NCBI GenBank assembly: GCA_040256005.1
Contig: JBDZWC010000019.1
Location: forward strand, 1-32,351
Reading direction: 5' to 3'
Source: Deinococcaceae bacterium
GTDB lineage: Bacteria; Deinococcota; Deinococci; Deinococcales; Trueperaceae
Length of the DNA stretch: 32,351 nt
Shown here: positions 2,006 through 16,614 of the stretch, in pieces
How positions within the stretch are numbered: position 1 is the stretch's first letter
Layout of the letters: every line of letters begins with the position of its first letter
Program-made: the position numbers and the translations under genes
Notes under the pieces: model-generated
Database searches by the model: none
Told to the model about the DNA's origin: nothing
Seen by the model: the letters and a program-made list of their open reading frames with translations, nothing else

Positions 2006-3199
2006 TCAGAAGTGATCGTTATGCGTCTTGAACACCGGGTGACCGGCGAGCGCACGCCCTAGCGGTCGTAGCTTCGCCACGGAGCCCTCCGCCCAACCGT
2101 CAGCGAGCAACGACTCCGGCGTGGCTGCCCCGGTCACCAAGGCGGCCAGCGCTCGCACGTCGAGCGCGGCGTCGGGATCGGAAGACCGCGACCCCGTGAC
2201 GGTCGCGCCGCCTGCGCCGCTCAGCTCCACGTCGAAAGTGCCGTCGTTCCACGGACAGTCCTTGTCCACCACACGGATGGTGAGCGACGCGTCCTCTTGC
2301 CACTGGAGGACCGACAGCGCGGCCCGCAGGTCGACGATGCGGACCTGAAGCTCGGGCGCGTGCACCGTCTGGTAGGAGGCGCGGTCGAGGGCGATCGGGT
2401 CGCCCGGCGGCAGGTGCAGCCGCACGCGGTCCACCTGGCCCTCGAACGCGGCCAGGAACGCGAACAGCCGCCGCCTGCCGGCTGGTGACGAGTACGCCAT
2501 GTCCCTGACCTTGAGGGTGGCCCGGCTCGGGTCGACTGGAGGGTCCTCCACCGAGACGACCGCGTACGCGTCCTCCAGCTCGTACCCGAAGTGGGCGACA
2601 TGTTCCCACGGGCGCCTGAACGTGAAGCTCCAGTGGTCCTTGATGTCGTCGTCGCGGGTGAGCGCGAACGAGAACCGCTTCGCGTAAGCGCCGAACGTGG
2701 CGCTCATGGCCGGTGAAGCGGACTCCACCGGCTCGGCCCCCGTGTCGCCCGCCAGCGTCACGCCCGCGCTGGCCCGCAACCGTTCGGGGGTCATCTCCAG
2801 CGTGTGGCCGTTCAGGACCGTCTGATAGCCCAGCTTGGCGTAGAAGGTCGGTTCGAACGGGTGCTCCGCGCTCCAGCCGATCCCGTCCTCGCGCAGGTCA
2901 GCGAACCAGCGCCGCAGTTGCTGGGCGACGAGCCCCCCGCGACGCGCCTCGGGCGCGGTGGCCACGCCGGTCAGGCCGCCGATCCTGACCTGCCTGCCCC
3001 CGAGGAGGGCACCGAAGGGCACCATGAACGTCACGCTGCGCAGCCTGCCGCCCCTGAAGGCGCCGAGGCTGTAGGGCATGCGCCAGGTGAGGTGCTCGGC
3101 CGCTGTTTCGCGGTCCTCGACCGGGTGGTAGGCGACGGACCGCACGTCGAGGAGCTGGTCCATGTCGTCGGCGGTGAGGGGCCGGAACTCGTGGTCCAT
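2006..3199 (-). CDS. Eis-like GNAT N-acetyltransferase with SCP2-like C-terminal domain (copy 2)
   Basis: VATAPEARRGG acetyl-CoA motif, EHPFEPTFYAKLGY, QVRIVDL, DKDCPWNDGTF, C-terminal DHF; ATG 3199 preceded by GGAG. Confidence 0.9.
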   Translation of the reverse strand: MDHEFRPLTADDMDQLLDVRSVAYHPVEDRETAAEHLTWRMPYSLGAFRGGRLRSVTFMVPFGALLGGRQVRIGGLTGVATAPEARRGGLVAQQLRRWFADLREDGIGWSAEHPFEPTFYAKLGYQTVLNGHTLEMTPERLRASAGVTLAGDTGAEPVESASPAMSATFGAYAKRFSFALTRDDDIKDHWSFTFRRPWEHVAHFGYELEDAYAVVSVEDPPVDPSRATLKVRDMAYSSPAGRRRLFAFLAAFEGQVDRVRLHLPPGDPIALDRASYQTVHAPELQVRIVDLRAALSVLQWQEDASLTIRVVDKDCPWNDGTFDVELSGAGGATVTGSRSSDPDAALDVRALAALVTGAATPESLLADGWAEGSVAKLRPLGRALAGHPVFKTHNDHF

Positions 3200-3221
3200 G
3201 GGCGGGGCTCCAGTCTGGGGT

Positions 3222-4382
3222 CTAGAAGTGGTCCGCGCGGGGCATGTAAACGGGGTGTCGCGAGAGCAGGCCGGCCAAGGCGTCAAGCGCCGCCACGTCG
3301 CCCTCGGCCACGCCGGTCGCCAACAGCGAGCGTGGGTCCTGGGCTCCGAACAGCGCGGCCGCCAGGCCCAAGGGCCCCAGCGACACGTCCGCTGTCGTGC
3401 CGGCGGGCGCCAGGGTCGCCTCGCAACCGTCCGGGCCCAGCCGCAGCCTGAAGACACCGTCCTGCCACGGACAGTCCGGGTCCGTGAGCGACAGGGTGAA
3501 CTCGGCCTCCGCCGGCGCGGAAAGGCCCGCTAGTGTGGCGGGCAGGTCCACGACACGCACCTGCAGGCCGTGCATGCGCTGCAGGTAGCGGTCGCCGTAC
3601 ATGGCTGTGAGCGGATCGCCGGGCGGCAGCATGATGAGCACGTGGTCCACCTGCCCGGCGAAGCTCGCCAGGTAGGCCAACAGACGGCGCCGCCCGGCGG
3701 GGCTCGTGTACGCGTAGTCGCGTACGAAGAGGTAGGGCTCGGAAGACCGGTCGACCCAGGCGCTGGCGTAGGCGTCGCCCACGAGCGCTGTCACGATGCG
3801 TTCGTCGAGCCCGGGCGGTTGCGTGGCATAGTTCATGCCGCCCCTGGTCCCGTCGTCCCGCGTCAGGGCCAGGCTGTAGCGGCTCGCGAACTGCGCGTGG
3901 ATGGGGCCGACCTGGGAGTGGTCGTCCGGATCAACCTCGACCGCCTCGTAGGGCTCCGCAGTGGCCAGGACCGAGACAGGCAGCTTGACGAGGTGGCCGT
4001 GTGACACGCTCTGGTACCCGTAGCGGGCGTAGAACCGCGGGTCGAAGGGCGAGTCGGCGCTCAGGCCCACGCCACGCTCGTGGAGGACCTCGAACCAGCG
4101 CCGCAGCAGCGCCGCGACGTGCCCTCGCCGCCTCTCGGTGGGGGCAGTGGCGACGGCAGCCAGGCCGCCCAGGCCTTGCCTGGTGCCGCCCACGTAGGCG
4201 GTGAACGGCCACATCGTCGCAAGGCTCGCGAGCCTGCCACCCTCGAACGAGCCGAGGACGTACGCCAGGATGCGCTCGAGGAACTCCCGGTGATCCTGGC
4301 TCATCGGATGCCCGAACGCGAACGAGCGGATGGGCATGGCCGCGTCGATGTCGTCGCCGGTGAGGAAGCGGACCTCACGCAC
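3222..4382 (-). CDS. Eis-like GNAT N-acetyltransferase with SCP2-like C-terminal domain (copy 1)
   Basis: VATAPTERRRG, DSPFDPRFYARYGY, QVRVVDL, DPDCPWQDGVF, C-terminal DHF; AAGGAG upstream of GTG. Confidence 0.9.
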   Translation of the reverse strand: MREVRFLTGDDIDAAMPIRSFAFGHPMSQDHREFLERILAYVLGSFEGGRLASLATMWPFTAYVGGTRQGLGGLAAVATAPTERRRGHVAALLRRWFEVLHERGVGLSADSPFDPRFYARYGYQSVSHGHLVKLPVSVLATAEPYEAVEVDPDDHSQVGPIHAQFASRYSLALTRDDGTRGGMNYATQPPGLDERIVTALVGDAYASAWVDRSSEPYLFVRDYAYTSPAGRRRLLAYLASFAGQVDHVLIMLPPGDPLTAMYGDRYLQRMHGLQVRVVDLPATLAGLSAPAEAEFTLSLTDPDCPWQDGVFRLRLGPDGCEATLAPAGTTADVSLGPLGLAAALFGAQDPRSLLATGVAEGDVAALDALAGLLSRHPVYMPRADHF

Positions 4383-8533: not shown

Positions 8534-9286
8534 ATGGACATCTTGATCAGTGGGGGGCCAGTCCTCGCGGCGATCGTGCTGGTCTCTTTCTACGCCGTGT
8601 ACATCTTTTTCTACCGGTTCCTCCGGCTGCGCAACGAGCGCACCGACACCGCCGAGCTGATGATGAAGGTGAACGCGGCGGTGCGGGAGCGTGACCTGGA
8701 GCTGGCGCTGGCGGCGTGCGAGGAGCACGGCGGCCCGGTCGCGCGCGTGCTCGGCGCCGCGTTGATCAAGCTGCCCTACGGCCGGCCGGCTGTCGAGGCC
8801 GCCTTCCAGGAGGCGAGCATCCAGGAGGAGCAGACGCTGGCACGGGGCCTGCGTCCGCTGGCCACGATCGCGCAGGTGGCACCCATGCTGGGCCTGCTCG
8901 GCACCGTCACGGGGATGATCATCGCCTTCGGCCAGATCTCCAGGCTGGGCACCGGCGACCCTTCGGTCGTCGCCAACGGCGTCGGGCAGGCGTTGGTGAC
9001 GACGGCTGCCGGGCTCATCGTCGCGATCCCGGTGATCATGGGGCATTCGTTCCTCTCGAGCCGCGTGGAAGCGATCCTCGTCGACATAGACCGGCGTCGC
9101 GAGGAGCTGATGGGCAACATCGCGCAGGCCGTCGCCAGCCGGCGCGAGGAGTCGCAACGCGAGCGCACCAGCAAGCCGGCCGCACGCGAGCACGACCAGC
9201 AGCCCGCGGTTCGGACGCAGGCGGCGTACCGGGACGATGACGAGACCCCGAGGCGCGTCGCCGCCGACCTGACGCCCAACACCTGA
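8534..9286 (+). CDS. exbB: MotA/TolQ/ExbB proton channel protein
   Basis: Three TM segments; APMLGLLGTVTGMI and GVGQALVTTAAGL motifs; AGGAG RBS at 8523-8527. exbB versus tolQ cannot be resolved by eye. Confidence 0.9.
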   Translation: MDILISGGPVLAAIVLVSFYAVYIFFYRFLRLRNERTDTAELMMKVNAAVRERDLELALAACEEHGGPVARVLGAALIKLPYGRPAVEAAFQEASIQEEQTLARGLRPLATIAQVAPMLGLLGTVTGMIIAFGQISRLGTGDPSVVANGVGQALVTTAAGLIVAIPVIMGHSFLSSRVEAILVDIDRRREELMGNIAQAVASRREESQRERTSKPAAREHDQQPAVRTQAAYRDDDETPRRVAADLTPNT

Positions 9287-9287
9287 C

Positions 9288-9701
9288 ATGACCTCGAGTA
9301 GCCGTCACAGGAGAAGGTCGCTGGGTGGCAACGCGACGATCGACCTGACGCCCATGGTCGACGTCGTCTTCCTGCTGATCATCTTCTTCATGCTCACCAC
9401 GACCTTCATCACCGTCGAGTCGGGCCTGCCGGTCGACCTTCCCGAGGCCCAGACGGCGACGTCCTCGCCCAGCGAGCTGCCCACCGTGACCATCAACGGG
9501 CTCGGCGAGGTGTTCTTCGGCGGGGCTCAGGTCGCCGAGTCGGAGCTCCCGGCGCTGGTGCGCCAAGCGCTCCAGCAGTCCGGTCAGACGGCCGTCGTGC
9601 TGCGGGCCGACAGCTCATCGCAGCACGGGCAGGCCGTGCGCGTGATGGACCTGTTGCGCCAGGCTGGGGCCGAGCGCATAGTCATCGCAACGGGCGGCTG
9701 A
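9288..9701 (+). CDS. exbD: ExbD/TolR family protein
   Basis: IDLTPMVDVVFLLIIFFM with the conserved TM Asp; VDLP, LRAD, VMDLLRQAG. Confidence 0.93.
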   Translation: MTSSSRHRRRSLGGNATIDLTPMVDVVFLLIIFFMLTTTFITVESGLPVDLPEAQTATSSPSELPTVTINGLGEVFFGGAQVAESELPALVRQALQQSGQTAVVLRADSSSQHGQAVRVMDLLRQAGAERIVIATGG

Positions 9702-9709
9702 TCCAGGGG

Positions 9710-11749
9710 ATGGCGGCGTACGGGGTCAAGCGGTTCTACGAGGACAGGGACAAGCGCCGCGCGGCGCTGCTGTCGCTGTTCCTGCACCTGGCGGCGCTGC
9801 TGCTGATCGTCTGGGTGGTATCGCGACCGCAGCCCGAGCCGCTACCCACGTTCATCGTCATAGACGTAGGCACGCCGGCCTTCGCAGACGAGTACACGGA
9901 GGCCGCCACGGCCGAGGCTCCCACGGTGCAGACGCCGGAGCCGCAGGTCGCCTCTACCGAGGCCGGTGACCCTCAGGCCATGAGCGCTCCGCAGGAGCAG
10001 ACGACGGCGGAGCAGGTCCAGACCGTCACCGAGCAGCCGCCTGCGCCGCAGGCTCCGCCCGCGGCCGCGTCCATGCCCGAGGTGGCACCCGTTGAGCCGG
10101 CCCAGGTGACGCCGCCCCCACCGCAGCTGCAGGAGTTGGCAGCCGAGGCACCGGAGCTACCCGTCGCGGAGGCCCCCGCCAGCCAGCTGCCCGAGGTGGA
10201 GCTCGAAGTGCTGCAGAACCGCCAGATCGCGGCGCCCGTGACGATCCCGGAGCCGCAGGTGCAGGCTCAGGTCTCAGAGTCCCGCTCCCTCGCCCTGGCT
10301 CCCGCCGCGAGCGTGGCCCAGGCCCGCGAGCTGACCGCGCCCGACGCCACGGCGAGCGTGGCGCAACCCGTGCAGCTGCAGGCCCCGACGGCCACCGCCC
10401 AGGTCTCGTCCGCCGTGGCCGTCACGAGCCCTCAGGTGAGCGCCTCGGTGGCGCAGGCCGTGCCGCTCGAAGCGCCTCAGATGAGCGCGTCGGTGGCCAA
10501 CTCCGTGAGCCTCTCCACCCAGGGCGTGAGCGCCAGCGTGTCCGGCACGCGGCGCCTGGCACCGCCGGCCGTGAGCGCGGTGGTGGGCGAGTCCGTGGCG
10601 CTCGACGTGACGCCGACCGTTCAGGTGGCGCGTCCGCGCCCGCTGGCCGTACCGCAGTTGAGGGCCGAGGTCACGGGGCCACAGGCGCCCGGTGCGCCCG
10701 ACACGGCCGGTGCCGAGGCCGGGGCGACCGACATCCGGGCGACGGTCGAGTCGCCCAGGGCTCCGGGCGGCAACGCCCTGAACGCGGGGCAGGCCGGACC
10801 CGCCGATCCGGACGCCACGGCGGCGGCCCGCGGGCTGGCCGGGGGCCCGGACGGCGTCGGTGCCGGCGACGGGGCCAGGCAGCCGCCCGCCAGGCCGGCC
10901 ATGAGCCAGCAGCGCGACCGGGCGCTCGCGGTGATCATCGACAACGCGAACGGCTACCCGCAGAGCGGGCTGGCACAAGCCAGCCTCGTCGTCGAGATGC
11001 CCGTCGAGGGCGGCATCACGCGCCTGCTGGCGTTCTTCGACGCCCAGGACCCCCAACGTGTGGGCCCGGTGCGCAGCGCCCGGCCGTACTTCGTCGAGCT
11101 GGCGCAGCGTAGCGAGGCCGTGCTGGTGCACGACGGCGGCTCGCCCGACGCCATGATCGCGATCGCGGGCGCAGAGGTGCCCACGCTGAACGCCTACACC
11201 TCGGGGGAGCTCTTCGCCCGAGCGGGGGAGAGGTCGGCCCCGTACAACCTCTACTCGCTGGGCAGCGACCTGCGGGCGGCCGTCAGGACCATCGTGCCGG
11301 AACGTGTGCGCCTGGTGGCTAACGCCATCTTCAGCCCGGCGCCGGACGCCCGCGCCGTCTCCGAGGTGAGCGTCAGCTACGGCGCGTACACGAGCGGCTT
11401 CAGGTTCAACGAGCTCACGGCGCGCTACCGCTGGGTCCGCGCCGGCGACCCGGCGGTGCAGCCCGACGGCCAGGTCCTCGAGACGCAGGCCGTGCTGGTC
11501 GGGGACATCCAGGCCGTGCCGATCCCGGACGACGACGCGGGCCGGCTCTACATCCCGGTGCGTTCCGGGCCCGCGACCCTGTACCTCAACGGCAAGGCCG
11601 TTGAGGGCACCTGGGACGTCGTGGACGGCTCCGGTATCACGTTCATCTCCGACGGCGGCCAGAGGGTGGACCTGGCCAAGATGCGCACCTGGGTGGTGCT
11701 CAGCCCCAACTACGAGACGCGAACCGAGCGACCAGCGACCGCCGAGTAG
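9710..11749 (+). CDS. TonB/TolA-like membrane-anchored protein with Pro/Ala/repeat linker and C-terminal DUF3048 (YerB-like) domain
   Basis: KRR + TM helix LLSLFLHLAALLLIVW (S22-x3-H26); Pro/Glu/Ala/Gln-rich linker; from about aa 402 LAVIIDN..PQSGL..VEMPVEGGITRLLAFF..VGPVRSARPYF..LVHDGGS..APYNLY, which I recognise as DUF3048. Confidence 0.8.
   Translation: MAAYGVKRFYEDRDKRRAALLSLFLHLAALLLIVWVVSRPQPEPLPTFIVIDVGTPAFADEYTEAATAEAPTVQTPEPQVASTEAGDPQAMSAPQEQTTAEQVQTVTEQPPAPQAPPAAASMPEVAPVEPAQVTPPPPQLQELAAEAPELPVAEAPASQLPEVELEVLQNRQIAAPVTIPEPQVQAQVSESRSLALAPAASVAQARELTAPDATASVAQPVQLQAPTATAQVSSAVAVTSPQVSASVAQAVPLEAPQMSASVANSVSLSTQGVSASVSGTRRLAPPAVSAVVGESVALDVTPTVQVARPRPLAVPQLRAEVTGPQAPGAPDTAGAEAGATDIRATVESPRAPGGNALNAGQAGPADPDATAAARGLAGGPDGVGAGDGARQPPARPAMSQQRDRALAVIIDNANGYPQSGLAQASLVVEMPVEGGITRLLAFFDAQDPQRVGPVRSARPYFVELAQRSEAVLVHDGGSPDAMIAIAGAEVPTLNAYTSGELFARAGERSAPYNLYSLGSDLRAAVRTIVPERVRLVANAIFSPAPDARAVSEVSVSYGAYTSGFRFNELTARYRWVRAGDPAVQPDGQVLETQAVLVGDIQAVPIPDDDAGRLYIPVRSGPATLYLNGKAVEGTWDVVDGSGITFISDGGQRVDLAKMRTWVVLSPNYETRTERPATAE
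10220..10672 (+). repeat. about 10 degenerate 14-15-aa coding repeats (consensus approx. ASVAxxVxLxAPxVS)
   Basis: RQIAAPVTIPEPQVQ / AQVSESRSLALAPA / ASVAQARELTAPDAT / ASVAQPVQLQAPTAT / AQVSSAVAVTSPQVS / ASVAQAVPLEAPQMS / ASVANSVSLSTQGVS / ASVSGTRRLAPPAVS / AVVGESVALDVTPT / VQVARPRPLAVPQLR. Confidence 0.85.
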
Positions 11750-11801
11750 TCCCGTTTCGACTTGACGCCGGGGGCCCCGCGCGCCGCGCCGCGGCGGGGG
11801 C

Positions 11802-11844
11802 TTGACAGCGCGAGCCTCGACCGCTAACTTAACCAACAAGTTAG
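11802..11844 (+). promoter_or_regulatory. promoter and palindromic operator of the ArsR-SRPBCC operon
   Basis: TTGACA (11802-11807), 17 bp, TAACTT (11825-11830); perfect inverted repeat CTAACTT-N7-AAGTTAG (11824-11844) overlapping the -10; AGGAGG RBS follows. Confidence 0.8.
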
Positions 11845-11866
11845 ATAACGAGGAGGTCAAATACAG

Positions 11867-12202
11867 ATGCCCGCCGCCGACCAACTGAGCCGCGCGTTCG
11901 CCGCCCTGGCGGACCCAACGCGGAGAGCCATCCTCACGCGCCTCGCACGCGGAGAGGCCACCGTGAACGAGTTGGCCGAGCCGTTCGAGATAAGCCTTCC
12001 CGCCATCTCCCGCCACCTCAAGGTGCTCGAGCGCGCCGGCCTGATCTCGCGCGGCCGCGTCGCCCAGAGCAGGCCGTGCCGGCTGGAGCGGCAGGCTCTC
12101 GACGAGGTCGGTCACTGGTTGAGAGGCCAGCGCGAAGCCTGGGAGGAGAGCATGGACAGGCTGGACCATCTCCTCAAGACAGCCGGCGACCTCCCCAACT
12201 AG
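11867..12202 (+). CDS. ArsR/SmtB family transcriptional regulator
   Basis: FAALADPTRRAILTRL..TVNELAEPF..SLPAISRHLKVLERAGLI. Confidence 0.95.
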   Translation: MPAADQLSRAFAALADPTRRAILTRLARGEATVNELAEPFEISLPAISRHLKVLERAGLISRGRVAQSRPCRLERQALDEVGHWLRGQREAWEESMDRLDHLLKTAGDLPN

Positions 12203-12243
12203 GCCGCCCGAAGCCCGCCGCGATCCGAAGAAGGGACGAGCAC

Positions 12244-12729
12244 ATGACAGACACAGCCACACCCGCCACCGAGCACGAACTGGTACTGGAGAGGGTGTTC
12301 GACGCCACCCCAGACCGCGTCTTCCGCGCCTGGACCGACCCCGAGATCCTCAAGAAGTGGTTCGCCCCCAAGCCGTACACCACGCCCAGCGCGCGCATGG
12401 ACGTCAGACCCGGCGGCAGCAGCACGATCGTCATGCGCGACCCGGACGGGAACGAGTTCCCCAACACGGGCGTCTACCTGGACGTCGTGCCCGACCGCCG
12501 CATCGTCTCGACCGACGCCTACGTGTCCGCCTGGGTGCCGTCCGAGCGGCCCTTCATGACGATGGACCTCAACTTCGAGGACATCGGCGGCGGCAAGACC
12601 AGGGCCGTGTACCGCATCAAGCACTGGACGAAGGACGCCTACGACCAACACGTGCAGATGGGCTTCTACGAGGGCTGGGGCATCTGCGCCGACCAGCTGG
12701 CGGAGCTCCTGGCGTCGGGCGAAGCCTGA
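12244..12729 (+). CDS. SRPBCC (AHA1/START-like) ligand-binding protein
   Basis: ELVLERVFDA..RVFRAWTDPE..KWFAP..MDVRPGG..GVYLDVVP..MGFYEGW; start ATG 12244. Confidence 0.92.
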   Translation: MTDTATPATEHELVLERVFDATPDRVFRAWTDPEILKKWFAPKPYTTPSARMDVRPGGSSTIVMRDPDGNEFPNTGVYLDVVPDRRIVSTDAYVSAWVPSERPFMTMDLNFEDIGGGKTRAVYRIKHWTKDAYDQHVQMGFYEGWGICADQLAELLASGEA

Positions 12730-13483: not shown

Positions 13484-14287
13484 GTGGACCCGTACCCCTA
13501 CCACGCCGAGCCCGACGCAGACCGCACCGACGACGTGGCCGCCCAGATGGACCGGTTGCACGCAGGTCTGGGCGAGGAGATGGCGCGACGCGGCGGGGTG
13601 CACGAGTCGCTGGTGCCGCCCTCCGAGCCGACAGGTGGGGCCGGGCGCCAGCCGGGCGAGCCGGGCTTCACGATCGACCCTGGCGCGCTTCAGGCCATCG
13701 TACCCAGCGTCGCGGAGACGTTCAGGGCGCCGCTGGAGGAGACGTGTGTCCAGTTCGAGATCACCACACCGCTCAGGCTCGCCCACTTCCTGGCGCAGAC
13801 GGCGCACGAGTCCGCGCGCTACACCGCCCTTGTCGAGAACCTCAACTACGGCGCGCCCGGGTTGCTGGCCACCTGGCCGAGCCGTTTCGACGAGAAGAGC
13901 GCCGCCAACTACGCGCGCCAGCCTGAGCGCATAGCGAACAAGGTCTACGCCGACCGGATGGGCAACGGGCCGGAGAGCTCCGGTGACGGGTGGCGCTTCC
14001 GTGGGCGCGGCATCCTGCAGGTGACGGGACGCGCTAGTTACCGGGCCATCGGCGAGGCGCTGGGCGTGGACCTAGAGGCCGAGCCCGACCAGCTGCAGAC
14101 CCCGCGTCTGGCCGCCCTGGCCGCGGGCTGGTACTGGGGCGCACGCGGCATCAACGCGCTGTGCGACAGGGACGACGCCGTCGCCGTGACGGAGGCCGTC
14201 AACGGTGGCCGCCACGGCCTCCAACAGCGACTGGAACTGCTGAACCAGGTGAAGACGGTGCTGAGCGGCGGCGACGTCGTAGCGTGA
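13484..14287 (+). CDS. glycoside hydrolase family 19 (phage-endolysin-like lysozyme/chitinase)
   Basis: RLAHFLAQTAHES, ENLNY, YADRMGNG..GDGWRFRGRGILQVTGRASY, AAGWYW, VNGG..GLQQR; TAGATT 6 nt upstream of GTG. Confidence 0.92.
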   Translation: MDPYPYHAEPDADRTDDVAAQMDRLHAGLGEEMARRGGVHESLVPPSEPTGGAGRQPGEPGFTIDPGALQAIVPSVAETFRAPLEETCVQFEITTPLRLAHFLAQTAHESARYTALVENLNYGAPGLLATWPSRFDEKSAANYARQPERIANKVYADRMGNGPESSGDGWRFRGRGILQVTGRASYRAIGEALGVDLEAEPDQLQTPRLAALAAGWYWGARGINALCDRDDAVAVTEAVNGGRHGLQQRLELLNQVKTVLSGGDVVA

Positions 14288-14328: not shown

Positions 14329-14604
14329 ATGTGCAGGAACATACGACCGCTCTTCAACTACGAGCCGCCGGCCACCTCGCGCGAGGTGCGCGACGCAGCG
14401 CTCCAGTACGTCAGGAAGGTGAGCGGGTTCACCGCGCCGTCGCGCGCCAACCAGGAGGCGTTCGACCAGGCCGTCGACGAGGTCGCACGGGCCACCGAGA
14501 AGCTACTGGCCGCGCTGGAGACGACCGCACCACCCAAGGACCGCGAGGTGGAGGCGGCCAAGGCCCGGGCGCGGGCGGCCGTGAGGTTCGGTACGCCTGG
14601 CTAG
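14329..14604 (+). CDS. DUF2277 family protein
   Basis: MCRNIRPLFNYEPPAT..AALQYVRKVSGF..PSRANQEAF..LET..PPKDRE signature. Confidence 0.9.
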   Translation: MCRNIRPLFNYEPPATSREVRDAALQYVRKVSGFTAPSRANQEAFDQAVDEVARATEKLLAALETTAPPKDREVEAAKARARAAVRFGTPG

Positions 14605-15389
14605 ACCGGTTCCTCGCGCGGTATGAGCTCGTCGAAGAACAGGCCCTTGAGCCTGAGCCGGTAGCCCGCTTCCGTGATGTCGGCGTCCAGGTAGACGTAC
14701 TCGTCCTTGTGCCCGTTCGTGTCGAGCAGCAGCGCACGGCCCTGCGACGCGACGTTGACGCCACCCCTCACCGGGGTGTGCCCGTAGATGCCCAGGCGGT
14801 AGTCGGTGCCCTCCAGGTAATCCACGTCCTCCTGGATCCAGCGCCGCCTGTTCTCGAGGTAGAAGCCCTGGTCGAACGAGTTGTGCTCCGGCAGTGGGCC
14901 CACGTGGGCCAGGTGAAGACCCTCGATGACCAGCTCGTACGGCCAGCTCAGGATCCAGTCCTTGAGCTCGGCATCCATGGGGTTGCCGTGCCCCGGCTTC
15001 CACTCCAGGTGGGCGACGTCGTCGGTGCGGAGCGGGCCCTGGTCCTCGGTCACCGCATTGAAGTCGTGGTTGCCCATGAGGATCACCATGCGCTCGTCTG
15101 GCACCCGGTCCTGGAAGCCCTTGACCTCGCGCAGGAAGCGCTCCTGAGCCTGCTCCGCTCGTTCCAGGTGGCGCGGGTTGTACTCGTCGTAGCGCCTCAC
15201 GTTGATGAGGTCGGCGTAGCGCTCGCGGCTCTTGGCGTGGACGAGGTCGCCCAGGAGGACCAGCTTCACGTCGCCCTCCCTCAACTCGTCCGTCGGCTTG
15301 TTGCGCTCGTCCGCCAGACCGGCGTCCCTGAGCATGCGCCAGAGCTTGTCGGGTTGTACGTGGATGTCGCCTACGACAACAAGGCGCAC
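14601..15389 (-). CDS. calcineurin-like metallophosphoesterase
   Basis: VGDIH, LGDLVH, MGNHD, AHVG, YGHT motifs; GAGGA RBS. Confidence 0.88.
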   Translation of the reverse strand: MRLVVVGDIHVQPDKLWRMLRDAGLADERNKPTDELREGDVKLVLLGDLVHAKSRERYADLINVRRYDEYNPRHLERAEQAQERFLREVKGFQDRVPDERMVILMGNHDFNAVTEDQGPLRTDDVAHLEWKPGHGNPMDAELKDWILSWPYELVIEGLHLAHVGPLPEHNSFDQGFYLENRRRWIQEDVDYLEGTDYRLGIYGHTPVRGGVNVASQGRALLLDTNGHKDEYVYLDADITEAGYRLRLKGLFFDELIPREEPV

Positions 15390-15444
15390 TCTAGGTCCTC
15401 ATGTTCTGGAAGTCGGCTCGTGGCCGCTGCCGCCTGATGGAGCT

Positions 15445-16614
15445 TCAGCGTTGCGCCGCCGCCTCCAGCATTGGCAGCGGGTCGACCGAGTCGCCGTCCA
15501 CGCGCACCTCGAAGTGCAGGTGCGAGCCGGTGGAGTTGCCCGTGCTGCCCACCAAGGCGAGGGTGGCGCCGGCCTCGACCCAATCGCCCTCGTTCACGAG
15601 CAGCTCGGAGGCGTGCGCGTAGTAGTACTCGGTGTTGCCGGACTCGACGATCACCACGTTGCCGTAGCCGCCCATCCAGCCGGAGTAGGTGACCGTGCCG
15701 GCGGTGGCCGCGACGATGGGGTCGCCGGTGTTGCCGTCGATGTCCAGGCCACCGTGCCAGTTGGAACCCGAGATGCGGAGCTGGCGGTAGCCGTAGCGCG
15801 AGGTGATCGTGCCCACGAGCGGCCAGCGCATGGCCGTGGGCGCGGCGGTGACGACGGGTGTGACGTTCCCGGTCACGGCGCGCGCCGCAGCGACCTCGCT
15901 GCCAGGCACGATGGTCAGGACCTGACCGGCCAGGATGCGCTCGGTCTTGAGGCCGTTGGCGCTGACGATGGCTGCGACTGTGGTGTTGTGCGTCGAGGCC
16001 AGTTGCCACAGGGTCTCGCCCGGCTGGACCGTCACGGTCTGCGCCACGGCGCCACCGAGGTCACGACCGCCGACCGAGTACTGGCCGGGGATCGTGAGCT
16101 TGTAGCCGGGGTTGAGGACCGTGGCCAGGGTGAGCCCGTTGGCGTCGGCCAGCGCCTGCGCGGTGGTGCCGTACGCGCGGGCGATGGACCAGAGGCTGTC
16201 GCCGCTGACGATCTCGACCATGAGCGGCTCGAGCTCCTTGTCGCCGGCGTCGAGGGCCAGCACCTGGCCGGGATGGATGAGCGTGCCGTCGAGGTCGTTG
16301 AAGGCGATGAGGTCCGACACGCTGACGCCGTTGGCCAGCGCGATGTCATACAGCGTGTCGCCGGCCTGCACGGTGACCGTGCGCGCCGGCTCGGACGCCT
16401 GTTCCTGCCCGCCCGGGATCCGGATGACCTGCCCGGGCCGGATCTGGTCGCCGCTCAGCCCGTTGAGCTGCATGAGCGTGGCGACGTCCGTACCGGCACG
16501 CTTGGCGATGCTCCAGAGCGTGTCGCGGGGTTGAACCGTCACCGATTGTGCGGAGGCGACCGAGGCCGCCAGCAGGCATAAGGAGAGAGTGAGTGCACAA
16601 CGCCTGGCTGACAT
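15445..16614 (-). CDS. secreted 4xLysM + M23 peptidoglycan endopeptidase
   Basis: Signal peptide ending ASA; four LysM repeats (VQPRDTLWSIA, VQAGDTLYDIA, IVSGDSLWSIA, VQPGETLWQLA); M23 HGGLD and HLHFE zinc motifs. Confidence 0.95.
   Translation of the reverse strand: MSARRCALTLSLCLLAASVASAQSVTVQPRDTLWSIAKRAGTDVATLMQLNGLSGDQIRPGQVIRIPGGQEQASEPARTVTVQAGDTLYDIALANGVSVSDLIAFNDLDGTLIHPGQVLALDAGDKELEPLMVEIVSGDSLWSIARAYGTTAQALADANGLTLATVLNPGYKLTIPGQYSVGGRDLGGAVAQTVTVQPGETLWQLASTHNTTVAAIVSANGLKTERILAGQVLTIVPGSEVAAARAVTGNVTPVVTAAPTAMRWPLVGTITSRYGYRQLRISGSNWHGGLDIDGNTGDPIVAATAGTVTYSGWMGGYGNVVIVESGNTEYYYAHASELLVNEGDWVEAGATLALVGSTGNSTGSHLHFEVRVDGDSVDPLPMLEAAAQR

Follow-up and report, generated by a model that had tools for sequence, protein, structure and literature searches.

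What does an ExbB/ExbD-type motor drive in bacteria in which its usual partners cannot be found? The Deinococcota have an outer membrane, yet in the genomes searched TonB-dependent receptors are absent and Pal is mostly missing, which puts the task of their ExbBD in question, and this question is posed in concrete form by a three-gene operon in a 32,351-nucleotide stretch of DNA (contig JBDZWC010000019.1 of assembly GCA_040256005.1, from a bacterium of the Trueperaceae), which we refer to as the window. On the forward strand the operon encodes an ExbB-type protein of 250 residues (8534–9286; Pfam PF01618, E 1.6e-28, the only PF01618 match in the genome), an ExbD-type protein of 137 residues (9288–9701; PF02472, E 2.6e-30) with a pore aspartate at position 25, and a 679-residue protein (9710–11,749), here called gene 3, in which Pfam searches place a DUF3048 head on a TonB/TolA-like stalk. 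The gaps of 1 nucleotide (exbB-exbD) and 8 nucleotides (exbD-gene 3) bear out the tight packing noted in a preliminary description of this DNA. We propose that the motor holds the stalk through its membrane helix and a following strand and thereby moves or switches a head that acts on the cell wall. Coupling of the motor to the stalk is, taken alone, highly probable; the statement as a whole is tentative and falls slightly short of an even chance.

The head sets gene 3 apart from TonB. DUF3048 matches residues 400–526 (E 1.6e-35, 122.8 bits) and DUF3048_C (PF17479) matches residues 554–662 (E 5.8e-10, 40 bits), where the Pfam cut-off for DUF3048 scores (PF11258 and PF17479) is 25 bits, and together they occupy 10,907–11,695 on the forward strand. 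No TonB_C match was obtained in the Pfam search of gene 3. The only solved relative is YerB from Bacillus subtilis (PDB 2PSB), and an AlphaFold model of the head (predicted local distance difference test score, pLDDT, 91.4) superimposes on it with Z 32.6 and a root-mean-square deviation (rmsd) of 2.3 over 267 residues, with a Foldseek E of 1.5e-22, so that profile and fold agree with the earlier assignment of the head to DUF3048 and not to TonB_C. The head shares with YerB both the two-domain fold and the conserved residues. These comprise about fourteen polar positions, five of them arginine (N412, E429, E433, R438, R455, S456, R458, Y460, H474, S478, R504, N513, D608, and R612), which are 91–100% conserved in 146 fused and in 78 stand-alone DUF3048 proteins alike and for that reason would suit an active or ligand site.

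Unlike gene 3, in which DUF3048 caps a TonB-like stalk, YerB-type proteins are lipoproteins of ~350 residues without a nearby motor, and stand-alone DUF3048 proteins in general are mostly lipoproteins or anchored by a single helix. Their carriers include the monoderms Bacillus and Streptomyces, so the domain could have a target other than an outer-membrane protein. The DUF3048/YerB family comprises 7750 representative clusters at E values up to 0.001, with fusions elsewhere to dockerin, beta-lactamase-family, PEGA, RCC1, and TPR domains; no relatives were found in viral contigs, and eight matches fall in phage records, all unannotated. Two papers describe YerB as a putative lipoprotein of unknown function (PMC13068155, PMC3416734), one of them listing it beside Spo0A in a table of sporulation genes. 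A figure legend in a further paper uses the name yerB for COG1470 (PMC10849945), a usage that we do not connect with the DUF3048 family.

The N-terminal part of gene 3 is built like that of a force transducer. A single membrane helix (residues 18–37; 9761–9820) follows a basic KRR motif and contains S22-x3-H26, and in a comparison with the SHLS pattern the serine and histidine are present while the later leucine and serine positions are Ile33 and Val37. A hydrophobic strand flanked by prolines (residues 46–56; 9845–9877; core FIVIDVG) lies after the helix, at the place of the TonB D-box, and is conserved. The linker that follows (residues 57–396) is 340 residues long, with 22% alanine and 14% proline, and falls into an acidic Pro/Glu/Gln part, nine 15-residue Ala/Val/Ser repeats (residues 181–315; 10,250–10,654), and a Gly/Ala part. 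The repeat autocorrelation is 0.94 at lags 15 and 30, a value equalled in 0 of 500 shuffles, and the number and strength of the repeats differ among relatives. The linker had been described beforehand as ~360 residues and Pro/Ala-rich, and the composition holds, but the length is 340 and the middle of the stalk consists of repeats and not of plain polyproline. Searches of a cluster atlas returned unnamed clusters and one TonB_N cluster at 0.87, which serves as a lead only. A predicted complex of the ExbD periplasmic dimer with stalk residues 36–70 scored 0.14 against a mark of 0.32, with controls that were not folded, and is not used as evidence.

The motor subunits retain their pore residues. 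D25 of ExbD aligns with the aspartate of solved ExbD chains and does not vary among the 16 homologues aligned, and T124, T157, and P117 of ExbB are invariant in 15 of 15, as expected from the earlier observation that the membrane aspartate and channel threonines are kept; Pro166 completes the set of pore residues, and Ser18 is also kept. In Escherichia coli, TonB uses Ser16 and His20 to contact ExbB at Ser34 and Trp38, which are linked to Pro190 (PMC12215075). In the window ExbB the Trp38 equivalent is Val22, by alignment to Acinetobacter baumannii-type TolQ chains. On the side of the stalk, 146 fused homologues were collected, 26 were set aside because they had no intact N terminus or no strand motif, and among the 120 counted the histidine is kept in 118 and S-x3-H in 114 (seven missed by the regular expression were read by eye). 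The three stalks read from family f3 have neither the serine nor the histidine, and ExbB Ser18 is replaced there by threonine, as one event; in the Atribacterota-type stalks described below, the histidine position is mostly asparagine (S-x3-N). The literature search, which did not extend to subscription papers or bioRxiv supplements, returned nothing on a TonB H20N substitution. The S-x3-H helix that the preliminary description had recognized is thus present and widely kept, though not throughout the family, and since the serine and proline of ExbB persist while the tryptophan is valine, and since the f3 stalks do without Ser and His, the docking site for the transducer helix would be a variant of the E. 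coli site. In three loci of family f4 (L085, L086, and L090) the exbB-like open frame is only ~116 residues long with the first helix in a separate match, and in those genomes ExbB may be shortened or encoded in two pieces.

The fusion is a stable feature of the lineage. Gene 3 matches were found in 23 of 24 genomes of its own family (the one without is 77% complete) and in 4 of 4 of f3; three other families, with 12 genomes, gave none. Of 28 loci, 27 have exbD immediately before gene 3, and the remaining one begins at a contig end. Three RNA runs, two of which resemble one data set, yielded short contigs only, covering parts of the operon and also neighbouring genes, and the contigs of run X1 contain no indels within gene 3. 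A one-off assembly or frameshift artefact is therefore not the source of the fusion. In one relative (L055) gene 3 is split into two frames.

The missing partners are missing from more than the neighbourhood. The window genome is 96.8% complete, and in it no match was found to a TonB-dependent receptor barrel, TonB_C (PF03544), OmpA/Pal, or TolB_N, with positive controls matched in the receptor-domain searches, which extends to the genome what had been noted for the surroundings of the operon. Across 151 Deinococcota genomes, its own included, the receptor barrel (PF00593) and plug (PF07715) are each matched in 0; TonB_C is matched in 1, and OmpA/Pal-like domains occur in 25 with no tie to the motor. 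These counts support the view that the system is neither a classic Ton nor a classic Tol-Pal system. Pal is reported to be restricted to the Gracilicutes, the tether in the phylum of the Deinococcota being OmpM/SlpA (PMC10628300), and the window genome has three SLH matches, one of them in a 935-residue frame. Its one PD40 match is a 640-residue frame with a GxSxGG hydrolase motif. The sole TonB_C match in the sample is a 415-residue, secreted-looking protein (L173, 1495–2742, reverse strand) in a genome without a receptor match.

That the stalk belongs to the motor is supported by an exchange of heads. The 151 genomes are kin, so the counts that follow are not independent tests. ExbD occurs once per genome in 110 of them, namely in the window genome, in all 12 of family f1, all 8 of f3 (probably Marinithermaceae-like), 79 of 82 of f2 (probably Deinococcaceae), and 10 of 48 of f4 (probably Thermaceae). 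In 104 of these 110, a stalk head is encoded 0.8–2.5 kb downstream of ExbD on the same strand, and this head is DUF3048 in 21 and a second type, which we call head B, in 83; of the remaining six, five have head B on another contig and one has ExbD only, and one further genome carries head B without an ExbD match. The two heads are mutually exclusive (21 genomes versus 89, none with both), DUF3048 being confined to the window genome, f1, and f3 and head B to 79 of the f2 and 10 of the f4 genomes. They are unrelated (hhalign probability 0.2), and in an unrooted tree without an outgroup the ExbDs of the two groups of genomes separate at a 100/99 branch. Head B consists of ~115 residues with two invariant cysteines, carried on a stalk after exbBD, and these stalks keep the histidine helix in 16 of 16 cases by reading, with a strand after the helix also present. 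Coupling of the motor to the stalk is favoured because two unrelated heads share the histidine helix and the strand, and because exbD adjoins the stalk.

A model of head B (pLDDT 86.5) superimposes on residues 198–318 of Treponema Tp0624, a segment that probably corresponds to its domain 2, with Z 10.3 and an rmsd of 2.5 over 101 residues; the next match has Z 3.0, and Foldseek gives E 0.04 for the comparison with Tp0624. That domain has been called uncharacterized and is linked with a divergent OmpA-like domain in a protein proposed to coordinate the wall (PMC5104382). A possible similarity between head B and a domain found in LPP20-type lipoproteins was set aside, as no result supports it. 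In most of the head-B loci read, a conserved secreted protein of ~230 residues with a signal peptide is encoded directly after the stalk, as in L042 (4081–6586) and other f2 and f4 loci (L040–L043, L085–L096), and in some of them a type III pantothenate kinase-like gene, recognized by eye, comes next. Neither head B nor the secreted protein matches a Pfam or NCBIfam family over cut-off. The matches to head B include a protein of Thermus thermophilus, and in Deinococcus radiodurans DR_0456, an exbB/tolQ-like protein, was detected by proteomics and DR_0458 is listed as an uncharacterized membrane protein (PMC8779699). DR_0458 may be the head-B stalk.

The arrangement is not confined to one phylum. 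Among 69 metagenome loci, 33 encode DUF3048 stalks of an Atribacterota type, named from their clusters, and 36 encode stand-alone DUF3048 proteins. ExbD lies upstream of the stalk in 29 of the 33, the other four having fewer than 300 bases of upstream sequence, and exbB or exbD was found at 0 of the 36 stand-alone loci, 23 of which have at least 2 kb upstream. In nine of the Atribacterota-type loci, those in which a TPR gene was called, a TPR protein of ~1215 residues is encoded upstream of exbB, and one Atribacterota-type locus has a second TolQ-like gene upstream of the giant TPR gene (L125, 620–1327, forward strand). The fused heads of the Deinococcota and the Atribacterota group apart in free trees, and an approximately unbiased (AU) test does not reject a single clade for them (p 0.264; 43 of 74 rows used).

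The best clue to the function of DUF3048 is found outside both groups, in a metagenome locus (L146, 3810–6795) in which ftsE and ftsX are followed after 30 nucleotides by a gene for a signal peptide, a CC_PcsB coiled coil (E 6e-11), and DUF3048. The slot after ftsEX is usually occupied by wall hydrolases or by proteins that activate them (PcsB, CwlO, RipC, EnvC), and those of the FtsEX-PcsB/CwlO/EnvC systems are coiled-coil proteins. The L146 protein resembles these systems, whereas a coiled coil is absent from the window protein, and DUF3048 does not belong to the known hydrolase folds. In another locus (L151, 3176–4645, reverse strand) the gene for a stand-alone DUF3048 lipoprotein diverges from an LCP wall-polymer transferase gene and is located upstream of one for a mannose-1-phosphate guanylyltransferase. 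A wall role for the head is favoured because of the fusion in the ftsEX slot, the likeness of head B to Tp0624, and the polar residues shared with stand-alone lipoproteins, and a wall-directed role thereby gains contextual support.

In the mechanism that we propose, by analogy with TonB, the stalk would dock on the proton-driven motor through its S22/H26 helix packed against ExbB, and the FIVIDVG strand would be captured by the ExbD dimer. The Ala/Pro-rich stalk with its 15-residue repeats would then reach across the periplasm and present the YerB-like head, a predicted wall-binding or wall-remodelling domain, to peptidoglycan or another wall polymer as the likely ligand of its Arg/Glu/His-rich site. 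The motor would in this way move or switch a wall-acting head, for example during envelope remodelling in growth or division, in cells that would tether their outer membrane by an SLH protein instead of by Pal.

Several observations weigh against this proposal. At the docking site, tryptophan is absent from the Trp38 position in 40 of 40 aligned motors, the Pro190 equivalent is lost in 4 of 4 f2 ExbBs, and the histidine is missing from all three f3 stalks; the FIVIDVG strand resembles the published D-box, an alternating pattern with flanking prolines, but does not fit it exactly (PMC10907165). ExbD was found in just 10 of 48 f4 genomes, so the device is dispensable there. On the side of the head, fold searches of the model match YerB alone, with all others at Z 3.2 or below, and no functional homologue has therefore surfaced; nor did the literature search return any DUF3048 activity. 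The ftsEX fusion comes from one Bacillota lineage, a single 90% cluster of five members, and most other neighbours scanned at stand-alone DUF3048 loci have no link to the wall (PitA, PdxST, HtpX, Era). Lastly, domain 2 of Tp0624 has no known function, and Tp0624 did not bind diaminopimelic acid (DAP) (PMC5104382).

In a rival explanation the motor-coupled head would grip a protein and not the wall, with a TolA-like pull on a periplasmic partner that would release or move the SLH-type outer-membrane tether. The heads of TonB and TolA do bind proteins by strand addition (PMC12204202), other versions of the operon carry secreted proteins (the ~1215-residue TPR protein upstream or the ~230-residue protein after the head-B stalk), and the 935-residue SLH protein could be such a tether. 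The window operon, however, has no fourth gene, a profile of the ~230-residue protein has no match in the window genome, and a TPR profile gives only partial TPR matches there; the conserved polar residues, common to the lipoproteins, also better suit a small or polymeric ligand, and we regard this explanation as possible but on the unlikely side. We think it decidedly less probable that no force is transmitted at all, the protein being a membrane-tethered YerB that is co-transcribed with the motor or passively held by it, or a tension sensor that gates it. Stand-alone DUF3048 proteins already combine a membrane anchor with a Pro-rich spacer where no motor is present, the Trp, Pro, and His contacts are lost in parts of the family, and adjacency in related genomes is not independent evidence. 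Against this, the Asp/Thr pore is intact, no other transducer candidate was found in the genome, the histidine helix is kept under two heads that are unrelated, and a second phylum has the arrangement as well.

Least probable, and in our judgement improbable, is a role in uptake, in which the head would open an outer-membrane transporter of a kind missed by current profiles. The motor and stalk are of Ton type, a profile miss is no proof of absence, and the very large OmpM/SlpA barrels of the phylum transport nutrients (PMC10628300). However, the receptor and TonB_C counts given above, a single motor per genome, the absence of an adjoining receptor gene in the window, and a head family that is widespread among bacteria lacking an outer membrane all argue against it.

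Among known systems, the operon comes closest to the vWA-headed force transducers of unknown function (Williams-Jones et al. 2025, PMC12204202), which likewise have a membrane helix with histidine, a motor box, a Pro-rich linker, and a head unrelated to TonB_C. They adjoin tolQ/tolR-like genes and, like the Atribacterota-type stalks, often have a TPR gene nearby. Since TonB-like stalks that carry a foreign head next to tolQR-like genes have thus already been described, the earlier suggestion of a new machine was overstated, and the system is a variant among motor-driven force transducers, one that likely acts on the wall. It differs from the vWA transducers in its YerB/DUF3048 head (head B elsewhere), in having one tolR-like gene, and in a 340-residue stalk with 15-residue repeats; DUF3048, YerB, and Deinococcus are not mentioned in the accessible main text of that paper, nor are DUF3048, Deinococcus, Truepera, and Thermus in the accessible part of one supplement, and the literature searched holds no description of a DUF3048-headed motor system. 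With the E. coli TonB-ExbB-ExbD system the window proteins share the Asp/Thr pore residues, the Ser-x3-His helix, the strand after the anchor, and a Pro-rich spacer (PMC12215075, PMC10907165), and they differ from it in having no TonB_C head or receptor match, in the change of Trp38 to valine, and in a strand that departs from the D-box pattern. As with TolQ-TolR-TolA, one chromosomal motor is conserved through the lineage, the best equivalog-profile scores of the motor are to TolQ and TolR, and an envelope role is likely. Unlike that system and TolB-Pal, however, those scores lie far under the TolQ/TolR cut-offs (ExbB and ExbD also score below the cut-offs of the ExbB/ExbD equivalogs), TolB_N and OmpA/Pal are unmatched, and the fold of the head is different.

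If the proposal is correct, a TonB-like arm would link proton-motive force directly to the remodelling of the wall, and the orphan DUF3048/YerB family gains a testable cell-wall role. Two alternative output modules of the motor are now named, one of which occurs in the easily handled Deinococcus and Thermus. A broader possibility, more speculative than the proposal itself and probably too generous, is that the Deinococcota maintain a phylum-wide third use of the Ton/Tol motor, distinct from both import and Tol-Pal, with an exchangeable head (YerB/DUF3048 or a Tp0624-like domain), and that DUF3048 is an unrecognized wall enzyme or hydrolase activator under mechanical control by FtsEX or ExbBD.

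No promoter consensus and no convincing terminator consensus was found at the operon. Directly downstream, at 11,800–12,729 on the forward strand, lie genes for an ArsR-type regulator and an AHSA1/SRPBCC protein, with a TTGACA hexamer and an AT-rich stretch ahead of them. A glycoside hydrolase family 19 (chitinase/lysozyme-like) gene (13,484–14,287, forward strand) is situated between the operon and a pair of genes for a metallophosphoesterase and a four-LysM/M23 endopeptidase (14,601–16,614, reverse strand). Other genes separate this pair from the operon in the window, and the metallophosphoesterase-LysM/M23 pair abuts the operon convergently in three related loci (L048, L052, and L053); it was set aside as evidence on function and is read as inherited gene order. 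On the other side of the operon, at 2006–4382 on the reverse strand, two tandem Eis-like GNAT/SCP2 acetyltransferase genes lie behind an AsnC regulator gene.

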